From NCBI GenBank assembly GCA_963738405.1, contig CAVTWJ010000002.1, forward strand, positions 136,575-200,574: a stretch of DNA of 64,000 nucleotides. The letters are read 5' to 3'. The position numbers and the translations under genes were made by a program. The DNA comes from a candidate division FCPU426 bacterium (GTDB lineage Bacteria > Oederibacteriota > Muellerivitia > Muellerivitales > Muellerivitaceae). The notes beneath the pieces were generated by a model that saw only the letters and a list, made by a program, of their open reading frames with translations, was not told the DNA's origin and did not search any database. Shown here piece by piece: positions 2,306 to 58,118 of this stretch; position 1 is the first letter of the stretch; the number at the start of each line of letters is the position of its first letter.

Positions 2306-4465
2306 TTGTCCCTCTCGGTTTTCAGCTACAAGCCCCCCCACGACGGGGCTATTGTGTATCTACAAGATGGAAAACTGGTCTTTTCCATCGAGGGCGAAAA
2401 GGACAACCACAAGCGCTATTCGGGCTTTGATTCCTTTTACCGCGCCATCAAGACCGCCGACCGCTATGACGTCAGGCCTGATGTCATCGCCTGGGGCGGC
2501 GGCTCCTCACCCCGCGACCCCGGGGACCTCTACCATGGCACCTCCAACGACATCATCGTGACCGAGAAAATCGACCTCTTCGGCCATAGCGTCTCCCTCT
2601 TTCGTTCAAGCCACGAGCGGGCCCATATCTTCTGTTCTTATGGCCTTTCACCCTTTCCCCAGGGCCAGCCGGTTTACGCCCTGGTTTGGGAAGGCGGCAT
2701 CGGTTCTTTCTACGAAATCGACGAAAAAATGAACATCCATAAGTTCGAGACCGTGTTGTCCGAACCGGGCCAACGTTACGCCCTTCCCTACACCCTGGCC
2801 AATCCCCGCTATTCCAAAACCAACCCCGCCTGGTTCAGGACCGGATCGGACGCCGGAAAAACCATGGCTCTTGCCGCCTATGGCGAGGTACTCCCTAAGG
2901 AAAAGCGGCGGGATTGGACAAAAGAAGTGGACGTCTTCATGAAATACAAGATGTCCTTCGAGGCCCCCGACCCCTTCCAACCCCAAAAACAAAAGAACGT
3001 GGAAGAACTGTTGGAGCAGGTGCAGAAAATCGGGCTTGTGGATATCGGGGTGGAAACGGACGATTTTAAGGATTTCACCTATGCCCTGAGCAACCAAATA
3101 TTCGATGTCTTTTACAAGTTCGCCAGGGCCAACCTCACCAAGGGCTATCCCTTGATTATCAGCGGCGGCTGCGGTCTGAACTGTGATTGGAATACCCATT
3201 GGAAAGATAGCGGGATTTTCGCCGACATCTTCATTCCCCCTAACACCAACGACAGCGGGATCGCCCTCGGCATGGCCATCGACGCGCAAAGGCATTTCGT
3301 CGGGAACGCCAAGCTCGATTGGACAGTCTATAGCGGGGAAACCTTTATCGAGGACGCCTTCGAAACCCCCGGCTTTGACCAGCACGAGTTCAGCTTCGAC
3401 CAGGTGGCCTCTCTTTTGGAGCAGGGCAAGGTCTTGGGCTGGGTGGAAGGAAAATACGAAATCGGACCCCGAGCCCTCTGTCACCGCTCGCTCCTGGCCG
3501 CGCCCTTCAAGGCGGAAATGACCGAGCGTTTGAACAAGATCAAAAAACGCGAGAATTTTCGGCCCATCGCGCCCGTTTGCCTGGAAGAGGAGGTTTCGGA
3601 GCATTTCGATTGGCGCGGGCCCAGCCCCTTCATGCTGTTCTTCCAAAAGGTCAAGTCGCCCCGGCTTCAGGCGGTCACTCACATCAACGGCACCGCGCGG
3701 GTACAGACCGTGAACGAAAAAACCAACCCCCGCATGACGGAACTGCTCCGGGCCTTCAAGAAAAAAACGGGCTTCGGGGTCCTGTGCAACACTTCCCTTA
3801 ATTTTCCCGGCATGGGCTTCATCAACCGAATATCCGATTTGGTCCGCTACGCCCAAATATCAGGTTTGGACGGCTTTGTGGTAGAGGACCGGCTCTATCT
3901 GAAAAGGGTTCCAGTCCTGGAACAGTCGGAGGTCAAGGCCGCGCCCCAGCCCATCCGACCCTATCTGGATTTGACCCGTGAAATCACGGTTTTCCAGCTC
4001 AAAAATAAAATCGAGACCCACATCACGCCACAAGCCGTCACCCTCCATTTTGACGCCAAGACGGACATCTGTATCTTCAGCTGCCCCTCGAATGTCTTTC
4101 CCTTCGCCGCGCCCGGCGTGGTGGATTTAAGCAGCTATCATTTTTTCCGGTTCCAGGCCCTAATCCCCAAGGACCTTCAATTTTTCGTGACCCTCACCGA
4201 ATCCGGGGCCAACGCCCCCGAAAGCACGAATTTTCCGGGGGTGAATGGGGCCGATGGGGAGCGCTACGGCTTTCCCTTGATGCAGGGCGCGGGCGTGTGG
4301 CAAAGCTACCAGATCGACCTAGCCGCCAGGGAAAAATGGAAATATTGGGGTAACCAGCACGGGAACAATGTTTTGGACCTGCAGGGCCTTCGGTCGGTCG
4401 ATTTTTTCGTCAAGGGAAACCAACAAGGCGAGATCCAGTTAAAAGACTTAGAATTTCTTATTTAA
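2306..4465 (+). CDS. Carbamoyltransferase (NodU/CmcH family) with C-terminal carbohydrate-binding-like domain
   Basis: Motifs HDGA, SHERAH, SGGCGLNCDWN, PPNTNDSGIALG, EIGPRALCHRSLLA, RENFRPIAP, HINGTARVQTV, LCNTSLN; ~170-aa extra C-terminal beta-rich domain. Confidence 0.9.
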   Translation: MSLSVFSYKPPHDGAIVYLQDGKLVFSIEGEKDNHKRYSGFDSFYRAIKTADRYDVRPDVIAWGGGSSPRDPGDLYHGTSNDIIVTEKIDLFGHSVSLFRSSHERAHIFCSYGLSPFPQGQPVYALVWEGGIGSFYEIDEKMNIHKFETVLSEPGQRYALPYTLANPRYSKTNPAWFRTGSDAGKTMALAAYGEVLPKEKRRDWTKEVDVFMKYKMSFEAPDPFQPQKQKNVEELLEQVQKIGLVDIGVETDDFKDFTYALSNQIFDVFYKFARANLTKGYPLIISGGCGLNCDWNTHWKDSGIFADIFIPPNTNDSGIALGMAIDAQRHFVGNAKLDWTVYSGETFIEDAFETPGFDQHEFSFDQVASLLEQGKVLGWVEGKYEIGPRALCHRSLLAAPFKAEMTERLNKIKKRENFRPIAPVCLEEEVSEHFDWRGPSPFMLFFQKVKSPRLQAVTHINGTARVQTVNEKTNPRMTELLRAFKKKTGFGVLCNTSLNFPGMGFINRISDLVRYAQISGLDGFVVEDRLYLKRVPVLEQSEVKAAPQPIRPYLDLTREITVFQLKNKIETHITPQAVTLHFDAKTDICIFSCPSNVFPFAAPGVVDLSSYHFFRFQALIPKDLQFFVTLTESGANAPESTNFPGVNGADGERYGFPLMQGAGVWQSYQIDLAAREKWKYWGNQHGNNVLDLQGLRSVDFFVKGNQQGEIQLKDLEFLI

Positions 4466-51403: not shown

Positions 51404-51787
51404 TTATTGCCCGCTTTTTCCCGCCGGGCTTCCCAACCCGCCCCCCCGAATGGGGGCCGCGTGGCAGGTCCATTCCACGCTCATGGGGGTGGCAATCCCC
51501 AAGGTGACGATGGAACAGAGGGTTTGCCAAAAATCACGCGTGATCGTCACATCCTGCATTCCGCCCTCGGTGCAATCGGTAACCTGCAGTCCCCCGTCAT
51601 TCAGGTTTCCCCACAAAAAACTCCAGGTGGTGGTCTTGCCGTCCCAGGTGGTCACAGGTGTGCTTTGCTTCAGGGAAGGGTCGTTGTTGACGGGAACTTG
51701 AACGTGGAATTCGGCGCAGGAGGTAAACAAAAGGATGAACATCAGGAGGATTGGAAGTCGCAAAAACAGATTGGGATATTTTTTCAT
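51404..51787 (-). CDS. Bor/Iss family lipoprotein
   Basis: Lipobox FTSC, SFLWG, C...IVTLGIATPMSVEWTC. Confidence 0.75.
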   Translation of the reverse strand: MKKYPNLFLRLPILLMFILLFTSCAEFHVQVPVNNDPSLKQSTPVTTWDGKTTTWSFLWGNLNDGGLQVTDCTEGGMQDVTITRDFWQTLCSIVTLGIATPMSVEWTCHAAPIRGGGLGSPAGKSGQ

Positions 51788-51911
51788 GGGCTCCCCTTCA
51801 AATGTTTAAATCGCAAAAGCAAAATGACAAATTACCCGACAGGTTTCAAATCAATTCAATGTTAAGTTTGTGAATTTTCTAAAACTGCACAAAGAATGGC
51901 CGGGATTCAAT

Positions 51912-52048
51912 TCGAAAACCCGAATCACGTTTCCAAAGGTGTTCAACAGATTGAATGTGATGGGGTAGTTGTTTAGAAGAAGGAAGCGATGATTGAATTG
52001 AAGGATGATCTGAAGACCCATTTAGTGAAGGTTAACCTAGTGCCACAA
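51912..52048 (+). repeat. Copy 4 of the 137-bp direct repeat
   Basis: TCGAAAACCCGAATCACGTTTCCAAAGG...GAAGGATGA...ACCCATTT; one internal stop codon. Confidence 0.85.
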
Positions 52049-52065
52049 ACTTATTTTTCCAAAAA

Positions 52066-52992
52066 CTATAAAAGTTTTTTTATCCTCTTACGATAATTTT
52101 TAGCCGCTCCAAAATTTAGTTGTCGCATATAAGCTGTTTTACCTTGCATTGATTTAAGCTCATTCGAATTAATCGATTTTCCATCAACGAGTTTTTGCTC
52201 CATATCTAATAATTGTTTTCGATATTCTCTCATTTTTTCTTTAGGGACATCAGGGCCATCCGTAACATCAACCCCCGGCGTTATTTTTCTTTCGCCGCTC
52301 AAACTCTGAAGAGTTTTTTCTGGATGCCATGTAAAACCATGATGTTCGATTGTCTTTTTTGCAGATTCGAGCATGTAATCTTTAGTTGAGGGCGGGCCAG
52401 ATAAGCAGCCATCATCGCCATAAAAAGTAAATTCACCGTGAAATTTTTCGGCCACCTTTTTCAATTGGGCCGCAACACCATTGCCCTCTCCGTAGGCGAT
52501 CAAAGCGGCTATTGCCGGACTCGTCAAAGCGCCCTGAGGTATTTCATCATTAAGGGTGGTTAGCTTTGCTAAACACCAGGCAACTTCCTTTGAAAGCTTC
52601 ATGGTTTTCTCAAAAAATTTTAGTACTCTCGTAAAATGAATACTTGGAAAAAAATCTTTTATATCGATCTTCACTAATACACTTGCACGAAAATGGGGTT
52701 TGGCGTTCGTTAAAATGCTTTTCCCTTTTGACCCGGTTTGCATGTAATCAGGCAAACTCATTCGACCCAAAATTAATTTTATCTTTTTTTGTAACTCTCT
52801 TAAATTTTTATTCGGATTAGATATCTTCCGCAATTTCCCTGATTTTTTTGGCTCGAATTTAATCCGATAATGCTTCCCTGTGTTGTCACAAATCCATCGC
52901 AATTGTTTTGGCGAAATGCCAAGAAATGAACTCAATTCGTCAATCGAAGAGATGCTAATTTTTGTTTCATCGGAAGGAAGGTGGCTAAACAA
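52066..52992 (-). CDS. Retron-type reverse transcriptase
   Basis: KKSGKLRKISNP, NAKPH (retron NAxxH region X), KIDIKDFFPSI, IPQGALTSP, YGDD, HPEKT, ITPGVDV (region Y, VTG-like); no maturase/HNH domain. Confidence 0.88.
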   Translation of the reverse strand: MFSHLPSDETKISISSIDELSSFLGISPKQLRWICDNTGKHYRIKFEPKKSGKLRKISNPNKNLRELQKKIKLILGRMSLPDYMQTGSKGKSILTNAKPHFRASVLVKIDIKDFFPSIHFTRVLKFFEKTMKLSKEVAWCLAKLTTLNDEIPQGALTSPAIAALIAYGEGNGVAAQLKKVAEKFHGEFTFYGDDGCLSGPPSTKDYMLESAKKTIEHHGFTWHPEKTLQSLSGERKITPGVDVTDGPDVPKEKMREYRKQLLDMEQKLVDGKSINSNELKSMQGKTAYMRQLNFGAAKNYRKRIKKLL

Positions 52993-53200
52993 AACAAACG
53001 TCTCCGTTTTCCAACATATAGTTATTGATTATGGAATCCCACGCCGCCAATAACTCCGCCACCCACTTGATAACCCCCATCCCCTTGAAAAGAGCTGGAA
53101 GGATAAATAGGTAGGGCTTTAATAGCTGTCGGACCCGCCTTGAAGTACTTTCCCTTGAAACTTTTAACAAGGATTTCCTTCGGTTCGTCCTTTTGGCCAT
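52985..53200 (-). CDS. 71-aa basic/amphipathic small protein coupled to the RT (candidate effector or accessory protein)
   Basis: Strong SD AAAGGGGGTGA before ATG 53200; Arg/Lys-rich N-terminus then hydrophobic helix; stop overlaps the RT start. Confidence 0.65.
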   Translation of the reverse strand: MAKRTNRRKSLLKVSRESTSRRVRQLLKPYLFILPALFKGMGVIKWVAELLAAWDSIINNYMLENGDVCFV

Positions 53201-53204
53201 GCTG

Positions 53205-53520
53205 ATCACCCCCTTTGCATTAATTCGTGGACGTCAGGCGGACCGATTCGGAGTAAATAATCGGCTCCATAAATAACTAAATTCGCATTTTTCATGCGAT
53301 TCAATTTTCTTAATAAGAACAAGAAAATCTAAGAAATCAAGATTCTAAACTTTTAACCCATTGCCCAAAGATGCAAGGAGCAATAAAGAAGAACCAAGAC
53401 TCTAGAACCACCGGCAATTGTTTCAAAAAAAATGGCAACCGGGGGGGTCTGTACGGTGGGGTGATTAACACCCATGTCCACTTCGGGGTGAGGCCTTTGC
53501 CTCCTTTCGAATTCTAAAAT
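53205..53520 (-). ncRNA. Putative retron msr-msd-like structured ncRNA
   Basis: End-to-end complementarity (53476-53491 with 53206-53232) enclosing hairpins at 53243-53264, 53283-53299, 53304-53328, 53361-53383 and 53459-53473; lies directly upstream of the small ORF and RT. Confidence 0.6.
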
Positions 53521-53529
53521 GCTAAATTT

Positions 53530-53558
53530 AATTTAAGGCGAGATGAATTTATTAACAA
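53530..53558 (-). promoter_or_regulatory. Candidate sigma70 promoter of the retron-like locus
   Basis: TTGTTA-N17-TAAATT on the minus strand. Confidence 0.35.
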
Positions 53559-53650
53559 GGGGTTGGGATGTTTTAAAAAAAACGTCAAAAATGCGGAATT
53601 TTCACAAACAAGGGGGCAAGGCCCCTATTTTATTCACAACGCAAATGGGT

Positions 53651-54250
53651 TTATTTCGGATGCACTGTAAAATTACTCCTGTTTTTTACTCGCCCGATTT
53701 TAGGAACATCACCTTTTGAAATACTTTTTAACAATTTTTTCAACTCATTAGATTGGCCATAAAAAACTTCGCCAGTCGATAATTGGACAAAAGCCCATCT
53801 TGCTTTAAAGAAGTCCCCAAGTGCATAAAACCTAATGGGAATGCTAGCAAAAAACTCAGTTCTGCTTTCCAAAACTACCGGCCAATCCAAATCCTTTTGC
53901 AACCGGTTAAAAACCCTATTAGGTATTTCTGCCGGAAATCTCGCCATATTCTTTTTCGCCTCAATTAACCCTACCATACGAACTTGAACCGGAAATGAAG
54001 ATTTATTCACGATTTCCAAAATAACCTCAGTACTCATTTCTTCCTTTTGGGGTTTCCCGCCTTTTTCCCCGACAACAGTGACCGATATTAGGTGTGGTTT
54101 TATTAAAACTTTCGCTTTGTCCTTGTTTCGGTTATAGAAAAAATTAGCAAGACTCAACACAAACCCAAACCAAGCAGCCAGCATTGTTAGTATTCCTAAA
54201 ACAATAGTTAAAATATCTTTCAGGGATATGTCAGAAATGGTAAAGGTCAT
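53651..54250 (-). CDS. Hypothetical protein with N-terminal TM helix (AT-rich)
   Basis: Hydrophobic residues ~13-38 followed by a soluble beta-rich domain. Confidence 0.65.
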   Translation of the reverse strand: MTFTISDISLKDILTIVLGILTMLAAWFGFVLSLANFFYNRNKDKAKVLIKPHLISVTVVGEKGGKPQKEEMSTEVILEIVNKSSFPVQVRMVGLIEAKKNMARFPAEIPNRVFNRLQKDLDWPVVLESRTEFFASIPIRFYALGDFFKARWAFVQLSTGEVFYGQSNELKKLLKSISKGDVPKIGRVKNRSNFTVHPK

Positions 54251-54254
54251 CTTT

Positions 54255-54728
54255 TTAGTCCTTCAGTTTTTTGAGAAAACCAGAAATCTTTTCAGGCGAC
54301 GTCCAATTACCACCCATTTGGCCGAATTGGATAATTGGCTCGGAGGACCCATCCTTCATCACCCGAAAAATAGTTAGTGAATGCGGTTTTCGTGGAAACA
54401 TAGAGCCGAGGAACGAAGCAACTCTACCTGGAAAATCTGTTTTATTCCAAGTCAACGAAAAGGCTTCCGGCCCCTCTTCAAAAGGAATCACTCCATAGGC
54501 ATAATCACCTTCAGGCGCCTCTTTCATAATTCTTTTCCAATGGACTTCCAATTCATCAACAAAACGCTTTTTTTCTATGGGGTGGTCAAAATCTTCTCTT
54601 AAGTACTTGGAAGTCACATTTTCCTTAAAGCCACAAATACATTGGCCAAAATACTTAATGCCTTCCTCATCCCCACCTGAATAAACCGTTAGTTCTCTAC
54701 CACACCGTTCACAAATGTACTTGTCCAT
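54255..54728 (-). CDS. Hypothetical protein with N-terminal Zn-finger-like motif
   Basis: GGAGAGG RBS; CERC...CIC. Confidence 0.65.
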   Translation of the reverse strand: MDKYICERCGRELTVYSGGDEEGIKYFGQCICGFKENVTSKYLREDFDHPIEKKRFVDELEVHWKRIMKEAPEGDYAYGVIPFEEGPEAFSLTWNKTDFPGRVASFLGSMFPRKPHSLTIFRVMKDGSSEPIIQFGQMGGNWTSPEKISGFLKKLKD

Positions 54729-54797
54729 TTAACCTCTCCAAAAAACAAAAGCGTAATCTTCTATGTTATCCAAGTGTCTTAGCCCGCCTACTAGAAA

Positions 54798-57700
54798 CTA
54801 GGATAACAGCCACTCCAGTTCCTCCCGTTTTAAGCCGCTCAAGAAACCTTTCTCACTCCCAAAAACAGCCTTGGCCAGTTTCCGCTTTTTCGCCTGCATC
54901 TCCAATATTTTCTCTTCCACCGTGCCCCGGGTGATGAGCCGATAGGCAAAAACATGCCGGGTCTGGCCGATGCGGTGGGCGCGGTCCATAGCTTGGGCCT
55001 CCACCGCCGGGTTCCACCAGGGGTCCAGCAGGTACACGTAATCCGCTGATGTTAGGTTAAGCCCAAGGCCGCCCGCCTTGAGGCTGATGAGGAAAAGTTT
55101 GCACTCGTCATCTTCCTGAAACCTTCTCACCTGCTCTTCCCTATCCCGGCTTTTACCGTCGAGATAGGCAGTGCCTAAATTCAAGGGCGCGAGGTGTTTA
55201 CGGAAGATGGAAAGGAAAGAAGTGAATTGGGAAAACACCAGTACCTTGTGCCCCTCAGACAAGACTTCCTGCAACTGGGGTATAAGCATTTCCAACTTGG
55301 CGCCCAAAAGATGTTTCTGGGCGGAATCCACCAAACCCGGATGGCAGGCCACCTGGCGAAGCCTCAAGAGCGCTTCGAGGACGTGCATCTTCGATTTGTT
55401 TAAGCCTTGGCTCTCCACTTTTTCCATCAAGGCTTCCCGGTAATGACGCCGCAAGCCGTCGTAAAGGGAACGTTGTGAGGAATCCATGTCGCAGAAAAGC
55501 ACCTGCTCGGTCTTGGCCGGCAGGTCCTTGGCCACGATATCCTTGGTGCGGCGCAGGAAAAAGGGCCTCAAGGCCCTTGAGAGAAAAGTCTGGCTATCCT
55601 TTTCCGAGGATTCCATGCCCGAAACCATGTCGAGGGCTTTGGAGGCCCCCAGCATGCCGGGGTTGAGGAATTCAAAAAGGCTCCACAGCTCGTCCAGGTT
55701 GTTCTGGACGGGAGTTCCCGTCAGGGCCAGCCGATGGTTGCCTTTCAAAAGGCGCACGGCCTTGGCGCTTTCCGAGCGCGGGTTTTTAATGACGTGCGCT
55801 TCATCCAAAATAACGTAATCAAATGTGTGATTTGCCAGCCAGGAGGCGTCCCGGCGCAGGGTGCCGTAGGTGGTGAGGATCAGGTCATAATTCGAAAAAG
55901 ATTTCCCGGTCTTGGTGCGCAGGATGCCCGTGTGGTCCAACAGCCACAACCCGGGGGTGAATTTCGCGGCTTCCCCCATCCAGTTGAAGATGAGCGATTT
56001 GGGGACCACCACGAGTGAAGGTTCCCGCCGGGTTTTCTTTTCTTGGAGTTTGCCCCTTTCGAACCGCCGGTTTTCCATTAGGGCCAAGACCTGCACGGTT
56101 TTCCCCAGGCCCATATCGTCGGCCAGACAGCCGCCGAAACCAAACTCACGCAAAAATTGGAGCCATCCCAACCCTTCCCGCTGGTAGGGCCTCAAGACGC
56201 CCTTGAAATCACCCTGGGGGTTGGCGGGTTTAACGCCCTCAAACTGCCGGAGCTTTTGCCGAGCCTCCAGGAAAGCCTTGTCGCCGGGAATTTCGGGTTG
56301 GGCCGCCAAAAGCGTGTCCAGAAGGCCCACTTGGTTTTGCTTGAAGCGAAGCCCTTTCTTTTCTTCTTTCCCCATCCGGGAAACCATTCCCCACTTGGCC
56401 AGCCATTCTTCGGGCATGATCCCGTAGGTTCCGTCGTCCAGAAGCACGGTCCTTTGCCCTTTTCGAAGGGCATCCAAAAGCGCCTCCACGGGCGCTTCCA
56501 CGCCGTCAAACTGGCCGTTTAGTTTCAGTTCAAACCAATCCAACCCGGAAGAAACCTTCGCGCTCAGGCTTGCCCCGCCGCGATAAAGTTTTCCCCGCGC
56601 TTCCACGTGCCATCCATCCCGCACCAGGGCCACCACCGCATCCGGCAGGCGGTTGGCGGAGATTTCCCAGTAATAACGGATTTCCTTAATCCCCTCGCTT
56701 TTTAACTGGAAACCCAGAGGAGCCAGTTTAGCGGCCTGTTCCCTTTCGGCCTCCCGGTCCCTTTCCCATAAAATCCGTTCCTTGGCCTGGTAAAGGACGA
56801 CACCCGCGTTTTCCGCCTTGGCCCCCAAGCCCTCATAGTTGAAGGAAAGGTCCCCCCACAAAAGGGTTTCGCCCGCCTCGCCCTTGGCAGGGGCCAAAAG
56901 AAGGCGGGGTTTGGGCTTGATCTTGCGGCGCTGGGGTTTTAAATCATCCGGCAAATCCAAATCGGGCGGCGGGACCGGCCTTCCGTAAAAGCCTTCCAGA
57001 AAATCATCGGCTTCCTTTTGGGGGATGGTTAAGAAACCCCAGGCGCCCAATTCTTTGACCCACAGTTCATCTTTTTCATTCTCAAGCCTCAAGAGCCTGT
57101 CCCCGGCCAAAAATAAACCCGAACCCTTCAAGACCTTCGTTTGGTTCAAGGCAAGCTGTTCCTTCCCACGGTTAAGAAGGCCCGTGAGGTGAAACCCCTC
57201 TTCCTTCCCGGCGGGGGCCAAATGTAACCGCAGGCTCCATGGCTTTTCCCCGTCCCACGTTAAGGAGGTCAGGGCTTCTTCCTGGGTGGTTCGGTTGTCG
57301 TAAAGGCACCGGCCCGTGGAACAAGCCAAGGGAAGTACCTGCCGGGCGGCCGCCGCCGATAGCCGGTACTGGGAACTGGCCTGGTTATGATTGGCGGAGG
57401 TGGAATAACTAAAAAAGGAATTGGCGGCGGGTTTGAACCCCCTTAGGAGGCCGAATAGTTCTTTGTCTAAGGGGGTCACCTGGGAAGGCCACGCGTTGTC
57501 GCCCAGCTTGAGGGGCGCCATTTTGCTCCACTGGCCGTCTTTTTTGCGGTAACACTTCAAGAGTTGGAGCAGGATTCCGCCTTGGACCCCGGAAGGATCG
57601 GTCCCCACCACATAAAACATGGATTCTTCGGCCCCGAGAGAGTGCCCGGCGTTTCCCAAAGAAGGGGCGCTGACCGCCCACTTAAGCGCGTCCCGCCAAA

Positions 57701-58118
57701 CAGGCCTTTGGGCGTTTGAAGGCAGGCGTGCGGGCGTTTGAGGGCCGGGGAAAGATTGGTTTTCTTCTCCGCCGTCCAGTTCCTCATCCTCATCCACCAG
57801 GGCTTTATGAAGATCGGGGGAAAGGCCTTCCACATCTTTCCAAAGACCCTGTTCCGAACAGGCGAGGATCACGGCCCAAACATGTTTGCAGTCCCCAAAC
57901 CCATCCGTGTTGTAGGGGCAGTCGCAACTCATCGCGACCTTGTTACCCTTCAACTCAAGCGAAACCCCGTAACGCCGGGACCCCCGGACAAAGGCCCTGA
58001 CGGAATGGCGGTCGGCCATTTCCAGTTCCACTTTCCCCTGATAAAAATAGGCGTCACCCCTTTGCCGGACGCGTTGGGGGAAATAAGGTTTCAGTTTGTT
58101 TTTAAGGCTCTGGGTCAA
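54798..58118 (-). CDS. SWIM Zn-finger SNF2-family helicase
   Basis: CDCP...CKH (SWIM); [47 protein letters not shown]. Confidence 0.95.

Follow-up and report, generated by a model that had tools for sequence, protein, structure and literature searches.

Does the low-GC island at about 51800 to 54800 of the window (the whole 64-kb stretch of DNA analysed) encode a retron, and is the 71-aa open reading frame (ORF) preceding its reverse transcriptase (RT) gene a small-protein effector that works without the HTH protein of its type VI relatives? The island, which holds both the RT and the small ORF, is small, foreign DNA. GC content is 0.34-0.44 in the retron unit versus 0.52-0.62 in the flanks, in agreement with the AT-rich minus-strand unit of the preliminary description. 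The island boundaries carry no integration signature; one 17-nt direct repeat (82% identity) was found, and no tRNA lies in 40000-64000.

The RT gene and its translation signal are as follows.

52066..52992, minus strand: retron-type RT, 308 aa, TTG start at 52992-52990 (ORF list, RVT_1, PADLOC RT_VI)
53002..53005, minus strand: RT Shine-Dalgarno GGAG, nine bases ahead of the TTG, in the 3'-terminal part of the small ORF

The protein is full length, and its catalytic motifs are all intact (DIKDFF; NAKPH, residues 96-100; PQGA; YGDD, residues 191-194). In an alignment of 13 RTs, D193 and D194 of YGDD and N96, A97 and H100 of NAKPH are invariant. Mestre et al. 2020 (PMC7736814) give as retron RT hallmarks NAXXH in region X (H most conserved) and VTG in RT7 (G most conserved). 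The RT7 triplet reads TPG, not VTG, both here and in the two close metagenome homologues (P0002 and P0003, on contigs of 9683 and 1597 bp; n = 2; 308 and 313 aa; 86% and 73% identical to the window RT); G240 is invariant in the aligned RTs, and V and T are replaced. Retention of the TPG variant and of protein length at 86% and 73% identity suggests a maintained lineage. Pfam identifies the generic RT domain alone (RVT_1, E 1.7e-13), no domain beyond RVT_1 was found in the 308 residues with Pfam, PADLOC or NCBIfam models, and models of fused types (Toprim, TIR, protease) align over the RT part only. An RT with exactly these properties had been proposed (308 aa, minus strand, TTG start, NAxxH motif, no maturase, nuclease, TOPRIM, TIR or protease fusion), and each of them is borne out.

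With Pfam giving only a generic match and the retron ncRNA at the locus putative, the gene could in principle encode an RT of another class (group II intron, DGR or Abi/UG/DRT); we consider this scarcely credible. By its sequence, the protein is a retron-type RT, as had been claimed. Among 45 PADLOC families, the best model is RT_VI (212.5 bits, E 1.8e-63) and the 25 best are without exception retron RT models; NCBIfam matches are retron RTs, and so are 10/10 PDB matches, headed by the retron Ec86 RT (E 1.6e-16). The group II intron RT/maturase model reaches 23.8 bits (cut-off 300) and the Drt3a model 18.7 bits (cut-off 200). NAxxH is present, the VTG triplet retains its G, and the RT, at only 308 aa, has no maturase or endonuclease domain; all of this speaks against a non-retron class.

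Within the retrons, RT_VI is also the top model for P0002 and P0003 and leads the next model for the window RT, RT_III-A (184.9 bits), by 27.6 bits, a lead given by a model that is not specific, since it awards 212 and 205 bits to two III-A RTs and 244 bits to a type V RT. In a maximum-likelihood tree of 36 RTs, the query clade (support 100/100) is nested in an 11-row clade (UFBoot 91, SH-aLRT 88), whose other members are P0004 (an RT known from protein alone), the type VI RTs L001, L002, L040, L061, L084 and L085 (defined by HTH_VI linkage), and the type V RT L082. A quick tree of 83 rows returned the same neighbours (SH-aLRT 89). The query stem is long (1.55), and the tree does not fix the position of the query inside the 11-row clade. 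Constraining the query clade to group with III-A/Ec107 RTs cost 27.4 lnL (AU p 0.048). These placements come from trees built without a curated type IV or VI reference set and with no type IV reference RT; a single clade unites the RTs of types IV, V and VI in Mestre et al. 2020 (PMC7736814). These results agree with the earlier guess that the retron is type VI-like and of the small-protein kind, with RT_VI as the best model, an RT that clusters with HTH_VI-linked RTs and a type V RT, and an upstream small ORF that is SP-sized and predicted to be helical.

Type VI is defined by a Cro/C1-type HTH protein (91-110 aa) whose gene lies upstream of the RT or overlaps it (Mestre et al. 2020, PMC7736814), and the type VI loci of the 11-row clade show the order small ORF, HTH_VI gene, RT in 6/6 cases. 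The window has no such gene. A six-frame scan of all 64 kb with a profile of six HTH_VI proteins gave a best E of 1.5, and the 71-aa ORF has no HTH match (Pfam; PADLOC at E up to 10). The idea that the 71-aa protein is itself the HTH was rejected, with an hhalign probability of 0.5% against the six HTH_VI proteins. The lack of the defining HTH counts against placing the locus in type VI. The HTH is needed for viability or repression, and to keep the retron from poisoning its own cell, in both systems studied, Retron-Vpa2 and Retron-Sen3 (10.1101/2025.10.22.683967; 10.64898/2026.04.27.721009); the Vpa2 HTH represses reverse transcription (Zhang et al. 2025, 10.1101/2025.10.22.683967), and the Sen3 HTH is the antitoxin of the small-protein toxin (Garcia-Rodriguez et al. 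2026, 10.64898/2026.04.27.721009).

We tentatively read the locus as a type VI retron variant that lacks the HTH and has a small protein as its effector, and put the chance of this a little short of even. That the unit might be a new retron subtype with a small toxin, as suggested earlier, stands in part: small-protein toxins of type VI retrons have already been described in two preprints (Retron-Vpa2, Retron-Sen3), so that what is new here is the missing Cro/C1 HTH, together with an unmatched small protein carrying +10 in its 28 N-terminal residues.

The missing gene could also mean decay, the locus being the remnant of an SP-HTH-RT type VI retron in which the HTH was deleted, the SP was perhaps fused or replaced, and no phage defence is left. 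Consistent with this are the HTH kept in 6/6 type VI relatives with DNA, the fact that both studied systems require it for viability or repression, the retron-typical VTG triplet that reads TPG, and the small ORF, which is odd in composition and has no homologues (below). We nonetheless think decay quite unlikely, given a full-length RT with intact catalytic motifs, the maintained lineage suggested by the 86% and 73% homologues, and the intact state of both Shine-Dalgarno sites and of the coupled overlap. An HTH is, moreover, absent from about 22% of 158 type VI entries (Garcia-Rodriguez et al. 2026, 10.64898/2026.04.27.721009).

The small ORF and its translation signal are placed as follows.

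52985..53200, minus strand: candidate small-protein (SP-like) effector ORF, 71 aa, ATG at 53200, stop TAG at 52987-52985
53207..53213, minus strand: small-ORF Shine-Dalgarno GGGGGTG, six bases before the ATG

The stop overlaps the TTG start of the RT by 8 nt, and the Shine-Dalgarno, as read from the sequence, equals or betters the sites of neighbouring genes; the 71-aa ORF with a stop overlapping the RT start is thus confirmed. Residues 1-28 of the product carry a net charge of +10, and residues 29-71 are hydrophobic/amphipathic (net -2). An AF2 single-sequence model predicts helices at 5-37 and 43-65 (mean pLDDT 67.3). With its size, the two helices predicted for it and the hydrophobic character of its second half, the protein fits the published description of SPs, which are 55-79 aa long, with two or three helices and a C-terminal hydrophobic core (type VI preprints, 10.1101/2025.10.22.683967, 10.64898/2026.04.27.721009). 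The known SPs examined carry -2 and -4 in their N-halves, against the +10 N-terminus here. The 71-aa protein matches no SP_VI model; this miss is not decisive, because the SP candidates of five related loci (L085, L001, L002, L040 and L061) likewise miss these models. Aligned with four SP candidates, it showed 0-20% identity and no conserved column. Complex prediction of the RT with the 71-aa protein scored 0.00 in both runs, which is evidence neither way.

For hydrophobic stretches, the usual mark is a 19-residue Kyte-Doolittle mean of 1.6. The best such mean in the 71-aa protein is 1.49, and K40, K46 and E49 fall inside the hydrophobic stretch, so that the label "membrane-active" given to the peptide in the preliminary description is not upheld.

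Homology searches recovered little. The 71-aa protein has no family in Pfam, NCBIfam, PADLOC (E up to 10) or PHROGs, and in 5.8 billion protein clusters it matched itself alone (1 candidate), the database listing the exact protein for the window's contig. A repeat protein, the sole other match (among 1.84 billion representatives), was judged spurious. In the ESM Atlas the best score was 0.80, a level reached by a third of shuffled proteins, and tblastn of the small ORF and of the 157- and 199-aa ORFs farther upstream (below) against 85 fetched related loci gave nothing below E 0.4. The database of 5.8 billion clusters does contain RT homologues (86%, 73%) and a homologue of the 199-aa ORF (86%). 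These results speak against a conserved gene, as does the GC3 of the small ORF, 0.54, versus 0.35-0.39 in the three remaining genes of the island; the codon-position GC of the SP tracks that of its RT in two annotated type VI loci.

Such a lack of homologues and deviant composition would also be found if the 71-aa ORF were not a gene and the 200-300 nt directly upstream of the RT were msr-msd RNA, the arrangement of canonical retrons, making the locus a minimal RT-plus-ncRNA retron; the effector would then be missing, encoded elsewhere, or identical with the upstream pair of 157- and 199-aa ORFs. The most stable fold of the island (z -3.48, at 53140-53021) lies inside the small ORF, as this explanation would have it, but the type VI SP genes published so far also sit within structured RNA, so the fold is no argument against coding. 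The GGGGGTG six bases before the ATG, the 71 open codons and the stop overlapping the RT start are also at odds with a non-coding stretch. We judge this explanation unlikely, though a serious contender.

A further version of the two-gene arrangement, which we hold to be very unlikely, is that one 71-aa polypeptide replaces both the SP toxin and the HTH, giving a retron in which the effector senses msDNA directly and no protein antitoxin exists. The arginine/lysine-rich N-terminus (+10 over 28 residues) would bind retron RNA or RT-made ssDNA, this binding would hold the hydrophobic, toxic half in check, and its phage-induced loss or change would free the toxin.

Three features were recorded upstream of and within the small ORF.

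53201..53610, minus strand: ORF-poor gap, expected site of the retron ncRNA (msr-msd / 5' hyRNA part), putative, no Rfam family
53021..53140, minus strand: RNA fold with the greatest local stability in the island (-41.2 kcal/mol, z -3.48), falling within the 3' half of the small ORF
53611..53626, minus strand: terminator-like GC hairpin, then a T-rich tail, just after the 199-aa ORF (consensus scan)

The gap (450 nt when taken as 53201-53650) holds no ORF of at least 60 aa on its strand. Its sequence folds into hairpins, with a z of -2.0 for 360 nt (1/100 shuffles as good) and of only -1.05 for 501 nt (14/100 as good). Among 120-nt windows, the mean z is -0.53 in intergenic sequence (11 windows) versus -0.04 elsewhere (83 windows), with z <= -2 in 4/94; the steadiest local fold within the gap is at 53410-53291 (z -2.76). 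Inverted repeats of 12 nt with at least 11 matches numbered 1, against a shuffle mean of 1.01, and the long-range repeat 53567-53556 / 53087-53076 was accordingly rejected as an a1/a2-like stem, being at chance level. A 14-nt AT-rich inverted repeat (53282-53269 / 53029-53016, 86% complementary) ends 24 nt before the RT start; it brackets the stretch before the RT, as would suit a non-coding msr-msd, but is weaker than the chance-level 12-nt match. An Rfam search with an E limit of 10 returned four matches, none of them with an E-value of 7 or better. No 7-9-mer is common to the upstream regions of the window and of L001, L002, L040 and L061 except one Shine-Dalgarno-like 8-mer, present in 3/5 upstream sequences. 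In type VI hyRNA, the ncRNA lies within about 280 nt of the SP start, the RBS is sequestered and long-range pairing surrounds the SP coding sequence; conserved 7-nt direct repeats appear in one figure of a preprint. Sequestration of the small-ORF Shine-Dalgarno by upstream RNA was rejected for the window (paired probability 0.91 versus 0.86 in shuffled sequence; 50/100 as high). Promoter-like sites in 51700-54900 numbered 6 against 6.1 expected, with none at the site proposed earlier, so the candidate promoter has no support above chance expectation; of the proposed multi-hairpin ncRNA of about 300 nt, the ORF-poor gap and its hairpins remain, with folds and inverted repeats that chance would yield equally, or nearly so. 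The terminator consensus scan found 5 sites versus 3.7 expected. The retron transcription unit is probably bounded on its upstream side by the hairpin at 53626-53611.

Three other ORFs of the island region were considered.

53651..54250, minus strand: 199-aa ORF with a long N-terminal hydrophobic helix, same island, retron membership putative
54255..54728, minus strand: 157-aa ORF, CxxC...CxC at the N-terminus, lying 4 nt upstream of the 199-aa ORF, retron membership putative
51851-52021: 56-aa ORF, the sole ORF downstream of the RT, no family match

The small ORF had been called the only co-transcribed partner of the RT, which ignores the 199- and 157-aa ORFs upstream on the same strand. The 199-aa ORF has one homologue (P0020, 86% identity, on a 1210-bp contig), no family in Pfam, PADLOC, NCBIfam or PHROGs, only unnamed hypothetical clusters in the ESM Atlas (scores 0.95-0.96), and a structure model too poor for use (pLDDT 48.2). 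The 157-aa ORF matched no family at useful E-values in Pfam, PADLOC, NCBIfam or PHROGs. If the small ORF is not a gene, the N-terminal hydrophobic helix of the 199-aa ORF makes it a candidate effector, in that related type IV retrons use membrane proteins (Mestre et al. 2020, PMC7736814). Against such a role, the terminator-like hairpin stands between the two ORFs and the RT unit, and neither ORF was found in the 85 related loci fetched (0/85).

Under the preferred HTH-less type VI reading, a retron of the type VI lineage would have lost, or never had, its Cro/C1 HTH gene, leaving two genes, one for the 71-aa helical protein and one for the translationally coupled RT. About 400 nt of upstream non-coding sequence would probably provide the template that the RT copies, and, by analogy with Retron-Vpa2 and Retron-Sen3, one transcript would carry both template and small-protein coding sequence. 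By the same analogy, the small protein may be a growth-arresting effector, and phage-induced changes in the RT-made ssDNA or its turnover may release or activate it, aborting infection. As an HTH antitoxin or repressor is absent, restraint in uninfected cells would need another source, for instance RNA structure around the small ORF, the RT itself, or the basic N-terminus binding RNA or ssDNA.

Both type VI retrons studied to date have the HTH protein at the centre of their control, and a maintained lineage with an RT and a small protein but no HTH would show which control layer is dispensable. If true, the reading would offer a two-gene system, pared to the minimum, in which to work out how a small toxin is gated by RT products. 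Should the small ORF turn out not to be a gene, what is left is a retron RT without an effector on a small island, which would be ordinary; HTH-less entries already make up about 22% of type VI.

Among known systems, the type I toxin-antitoxin toxins Hok and TisB are small hydrophobic or amphipathic peptides whose translation is held back by RNA structure. The likeness of the small ORF to these is solely one of working mode; there is no evident antisense RNA here, and the window peptide is coupled to an RT gene.

Type IV (Retron-Eco6/Ec48) pairs an RT with a two-transmembrane-helix protein and thus uses a small membrane-associated effector, the idea first put forward for the locus. The effectors of type IV are encoded downstream of the RT or overlap its 3' end (Mestre et al. 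2020, PMC7736814). In the window, by contrast, just the 56-aa ORF without a family match follows the RT, and RT_IV is outside the 25 best PADLOC families.

Type V, represented by the Hafnia paralvei plasmid pAVS0177-b (L082), resembles the locus in having an RT of the same 11-row clade and a small partner protein. That partner is, however, a cold-shock-domain protein encoded downstream of the RT, whereas no cold-shock domain was found in the five window ORFs scanned (Pfam) or in three further small ORFs, and RT_V scores 117.3 bits for the window RT versus 427.4 bits for L082.

Type VI is the closest system, with several differences. The window has no Cro/C1 HTH gene, and its small ORF occupies the usual HTH position and overlaps the RT start; the 71-aa protein lacks an SP_VI match and has a +10 N-terminus; the RT7 triplet is TPG, not VTG; and the runner-up RT models are III-A, XII and XIII, versus V and IV in the two annotated type VI plasmid loci. 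Shared with type VI are RT_VI as best model and an RT in one clade with HTH_VI-linked RTs, a small ORF of about 70 aa, predicted to be helical and hydrophobic in its second half, which precedes the RT on the same strand, and a long non-coding stretch upstream of that ORF. A stable RNA fold overlaps the small ORF, much as published hyRNA embeds the SP coding sequence in structured RNA.

The RT and the ORF that precedes it lie in a region of low GC content (0.34-0.44 at ~51800-54800, versus 0.52-0.62 on both sides); the island thus spans ~3 kb and is bigger than the RT plus small-ORF unit. Features of the island were as follows.

52066-52992, minus strand: query RT, 308 aa, TTG start (52992-52990)
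Nine bases 5' of the TTG, minus strand: RT Shine-Dalgarno GGAG, read from the sequence
52985-53200, minus strand: small ORF, 71 aa, ATG at 53200 to stop at 52987-52985
Six bases 5' of the ATG, minus strand: small-ORF Shine-Dalgarno GGGGGTG, read from the sequence
53201-53650, minus strand: gap 5' of the small ORF, 450 nt, without an ORF of ≥60 aa on that strand
53626-53611, minus strand: terminator-like hairpin, 3' of the 199-aa ORF
53651-54250, minus strand: 199-aa ORF with a long N-terminal hydrophobic helix
54255-54728, minus strand: 157-aa ORF with an N-terminal CxxC...CxC motif

The gene-level content of the preliminary description was confirmed: the 308-aa RT starts at a TTG that the stop of the 71-aa ORF overlaps by 8 nt, and RVT_1 is its sole domain (Pfam, E 1.7e-13). 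Alignment placed the motifs DIKDFF, NAKPH (residues 96-100), PQGA, and YGDD (residues 191-194). Retron RTs are marked by NAXXH and a VTG triplet, whose G is the most conserved residue (Mestre et al. 2020, PMC7736814); the query RT has NAXXH and reads TPG at the VTG position, with the G kept. The top PADLOC model was RT_VI (212.5 bits, E 1.8e-63), followed by RT_III-A (184.9), and of the 45 PADLOC families matched, the top 25 were all retron RT models. NCBIfam retron families matched at E 1e-41 to 1e-43, and 10/10 PDB matches were retron RTs (Ec86 top, E 1.6e-16). Two other NCBIfam identities were rejected, namely, group II intron RT/maturase (23.8 bits; cut-off, 300) and Drt3a (18.7 bits; cut-off, 200). 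Judged by sequence, the enzyme is a predicted retron RT.

Close RT homologues among 5.8 billion protein clusters were limited to two metagenome proteins, P0002 (86% identity, 308 aa, 9683-bp contig) and P0003 (73% identity, 313 aa, 1597-bp contig), both with the TPG variant; further matches there had ≤35% identity. The RT cluster search gave 16 proteins with E ≤0.001 among 1050 candidates. Scanning a single genome per species (600 pattern matches, 377 confirmed, best 80 of 377 kept) yielded no close relative, the closest RT being L001 from a Hydrogenedentota metagenome-assembled genome (35% identity). PADLOC classing covered 36 of the 80 fetched RTs and left the other 44 unlabelled. RT_VI was the top model for fetched loci L001 (236.5 bits), L002 (222.3), and L061 (195.5) and for the RTs P0004 (232.1), P0002 (208.8), and P0003 (195.3). 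The model was calibrated with five annotated plasmid loci.

L084, type VI: RT_VI score 258.9; next RT_V, then RT_IV
L085, type VI: RT_VI score 223.7; next RT_V, then RT_IV
L082, type V: RT_VI score 243.8; own model RT_V 427.4
L081, type III-A: RT_VI score 212.3; own III-A model top
L083, type III-A: RT_VI score 204.8; own III-A model top

Because type V and III-A plasmid RTs score 204.8-243.8, the absolute RT_VI score is unspecific, and only its top rank counts.

A quick tree of 83 rows was built after removal of 13 near-identical or truncated loci (L015, L016, L018, L019, L020, L022, L051, L055, L056, L058, L064, L065, and L068); the query clade grouped with P0004, L001, L002, L040, and L061 (SH-aLRT 89). 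A careful tree of 36 rows, to which L082, L084, L085, and the two III-A plasmid RTs were added and which held no type IV reference, recovered an 11-row clade (UFBoot 91, SH-aLRT 88) of the query clade, P0004, L001, L002, L040, L061, and the group L082, L084, and L085 (100/98). The query clade was supported at 100/100 on a stem of 1.55; branching order within the 11 rows was unresolved, with a long-branch warning from the program. Forcing the query clade to join nine III-A/Ec107 RTs cost 27.4 lnL, a borderline result (AU p 0.048). The earlier guess of a type VI-like system is the best-supported placement, given the top rank of RT_VI and the clade shared with type VI RTs and a type V RT.

Canonical type VI order is small protein (SP), Cro/C1 regulator (HTH), and RT (Mestre 2020, PMC7736814; Garcia-Rodriguez 2026, bioRxiv 10.64898/2026.04.27.721009), and the type VI loci of the 11-row clade follow it. 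All six (L001, L002, L040, L061, L084, and L085) have an HTH gene directly 5' of the RT, matched near full length by PADLOC HTH_VI (6/6; E 4e-28 to 3e-18) and by Pfam HTH_3 in the four checked (E 2e-12 to 5e-16). An extra ORF stands 5' of the HTH gene in every locus, with 69-93 aa in five and 154 aa in L001, where it overlaps the HTH gene; PADLOC SP_VI matched that of L084 (128 bits) and none of the other five. In L001 this only SP candidate (3362-3826) overlaps the HTH gene (3639-3965) by ~160-190 nt in another frame, which leaves two readings: an SP shorter than the 154-aa ORF, or a locus annotation that needs care. Unlike these relatives, the retron of the window lacks an HTH gene. The 71-aa ORF matched no HTH domain in Pfam, NCBIfam, or PADLOC (the last to E 10) and aligned to the six HTH_VI proteins with an hhalign probability of 0.5%. 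A profile of those six proteins, whose training sequences score E ≤4e-37 by construction, reached a best E of 1.5 in an unfiltered search of six-frame segments of ≥25 aa across the window.

The status of the small ORF as a gene is supported by its 71 open codons, its strong Shine-Dalgarno, and the overlap that couples it to the RT. The Shine-Dalgarno is well spaced, and those of neighbouring genes are equal or worse. The exact protein is already recorded for this contig in a protein collection. Counting against a gene is the lack of homologues, although the RT and the 199-aa ORF do have them: the 71-aa protein found none but itself in 5.8 billion clusters, and the only other match, among 1.84 billion representatives, was a 689-aa repeat protein with seven matches, all to residues 40-61, judged spurious. 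GC3 was 0.54, versus 0.35, 0.36, and 0.39 in the remaining three genes of the island; SP codon-position GC tracks that of the RT in L084 and L085. The 11-mer of the Shine-Dalgarno, GGGGGTGATCA (minus strand, 53203-53213), has a second copy, differing at one position, 135 nt downstream within the ORF (53068-53078), followed by an in-frame GTG; this copy may be fortuitous or mark an internal start.

The preliminary description had also placed a structured ncRNA upstream, which our data did not demonstrate. The gap is where an ncRNA would be expected. The region 53560-53201 folded into several hairpins (z -2.0; 1/100 shuffles equally stable), versus z -1.05 for a 501-nt fold (14/100). Across the island, 4/94 windows of 120 nt reached z ≤-2.

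54370-54251, minus strand: 157-aa/199-aa ORF junction, -38.6 kcal/mol, z -3.08
53650-53531, minus strand: includes the terminator hairpin
53410-53291, minus strand: within the gap, z -2.76
53140-53021, minus strand: within the small ORF, -41.2 kcal/mol, z -3.48

No Rfam family matched, no upstream motif common to the window and relatives was found, and a 12-nt repeat joining 53567-53556 to the small-ORF interior was at chance level. Small-ORF Shine-Dalgarno pairing was 0.91, versus 0.86 in shuffled upstream sequence (50/100 shuffles as high). A 20-nt direct repeat (17/20 identical; 53419-53438 and 53569-53588, 150 nt apart) lies in the gap, each copy reading TTGNCNTTTTTTTTNAAACA on the minus strand with a U8 run; shorter direct repeats, of 7 nt, are published for type VI retrons. 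The only notable RNA signal is the stable fold overlapping the small ORF, which fits a transcript like the hybrid ncRNA-SP coding RNA (hyRNA) and an ncRNA-only reading equally well. We regard the small ORF as a candidate gene and the ncRNA as putative and unproven.

Neither the 157-aa nor the 199-aa ORF matched a family in Pfam, NCBIfam, PADLOC, or PHROGs. The 199-aa ORF had a single homologue, P0020 (86% identity, 1210-bp metagenome contig), and only unnamed hypothetical clusters were alike in the ESM Atlas (0.95-0.96). The two ORFs may be partners of the retron or a cargo pair without relation to it. The flanks look like ordinary chromosomal genes (SNF2 helicase, MFS transporter, FAD-binding protein, lipase, and lipoprotein); no tRNA was found in 40000-64000, and the one direct repeat around the island was weak (17 nt). 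Adjoining the island are a 1106-aa SNF2-family helicase (54798-58118, minus strand; GC 0.56, host-like), whose C-terminal helicase core gives high scores, up to 464 bits, with the PADLOC models DpdE and ZorD, and a 127-aa putative lipoprotein (51404-51787, minus strand) with weak matches to the Bor family and Leptospira-named NCBIfam LIC_10461 and LA_3781 (E 0.0005-0.01); these matches hint at host lineage.

A small-protein effector, put forward earlier as new, is already published. Retron-Vpa2 carries its msr-msd and SP coding sequence on a single hybrid RNA; the SP acts as the toxin, msDNA builds up solely after a trigger and then lifts the repression of SP translation, and HTH mutation is toxic (Zhang et al. 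2025, 10.1101/2025.10.22.683967). Retron-Sen3 has constitutive single-stranded DNA and SP, an RT-binding HTH antitoxin, and RecBCD inhibition as trigger, and ~78% of 158 type VI entries encode an HTH (Garcia-Rodriguez et al. 2026, 10.64898/2026.04.27.721009). In an mSystems 2026 survey, the label "known-type expansion" covered 93 type VI candidates, and HTH_3 was their listed neighbour domain (n = 21); no HTH-less type VI system was described in the portions of the type VI retron literature available to us. Published SPs are 55-79 aa long and consist of two or three helices, and their toxicity requires a hydrophobic core at the C-terminus (10.1101/2025.10.22.683967; 10.64898/2026.04.27.721009). 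The 71-aa protein, modelled by single-sequence AF2 as two helices (residues 5-37 and 43-65; mean pLDDT, 67.3), has its top 19-residue Kyte-Doolittle mean (1.49) from residue 26; in its predicted helical hairpin and the hydrophobicity of its second half, it resembles published SPs. Its charge differs: residues 1-28 carry +10 (residues 29-71, -2), whereas the N-terminal halves of the annotated SPs of L084 and L085 carry -2 and -4. What is unusual at this locus, compared with known type VI retrons, is the missing HTH, together with a small ORF that is coupled directly to the RT and whose sequence is strongly basic and unmatched.
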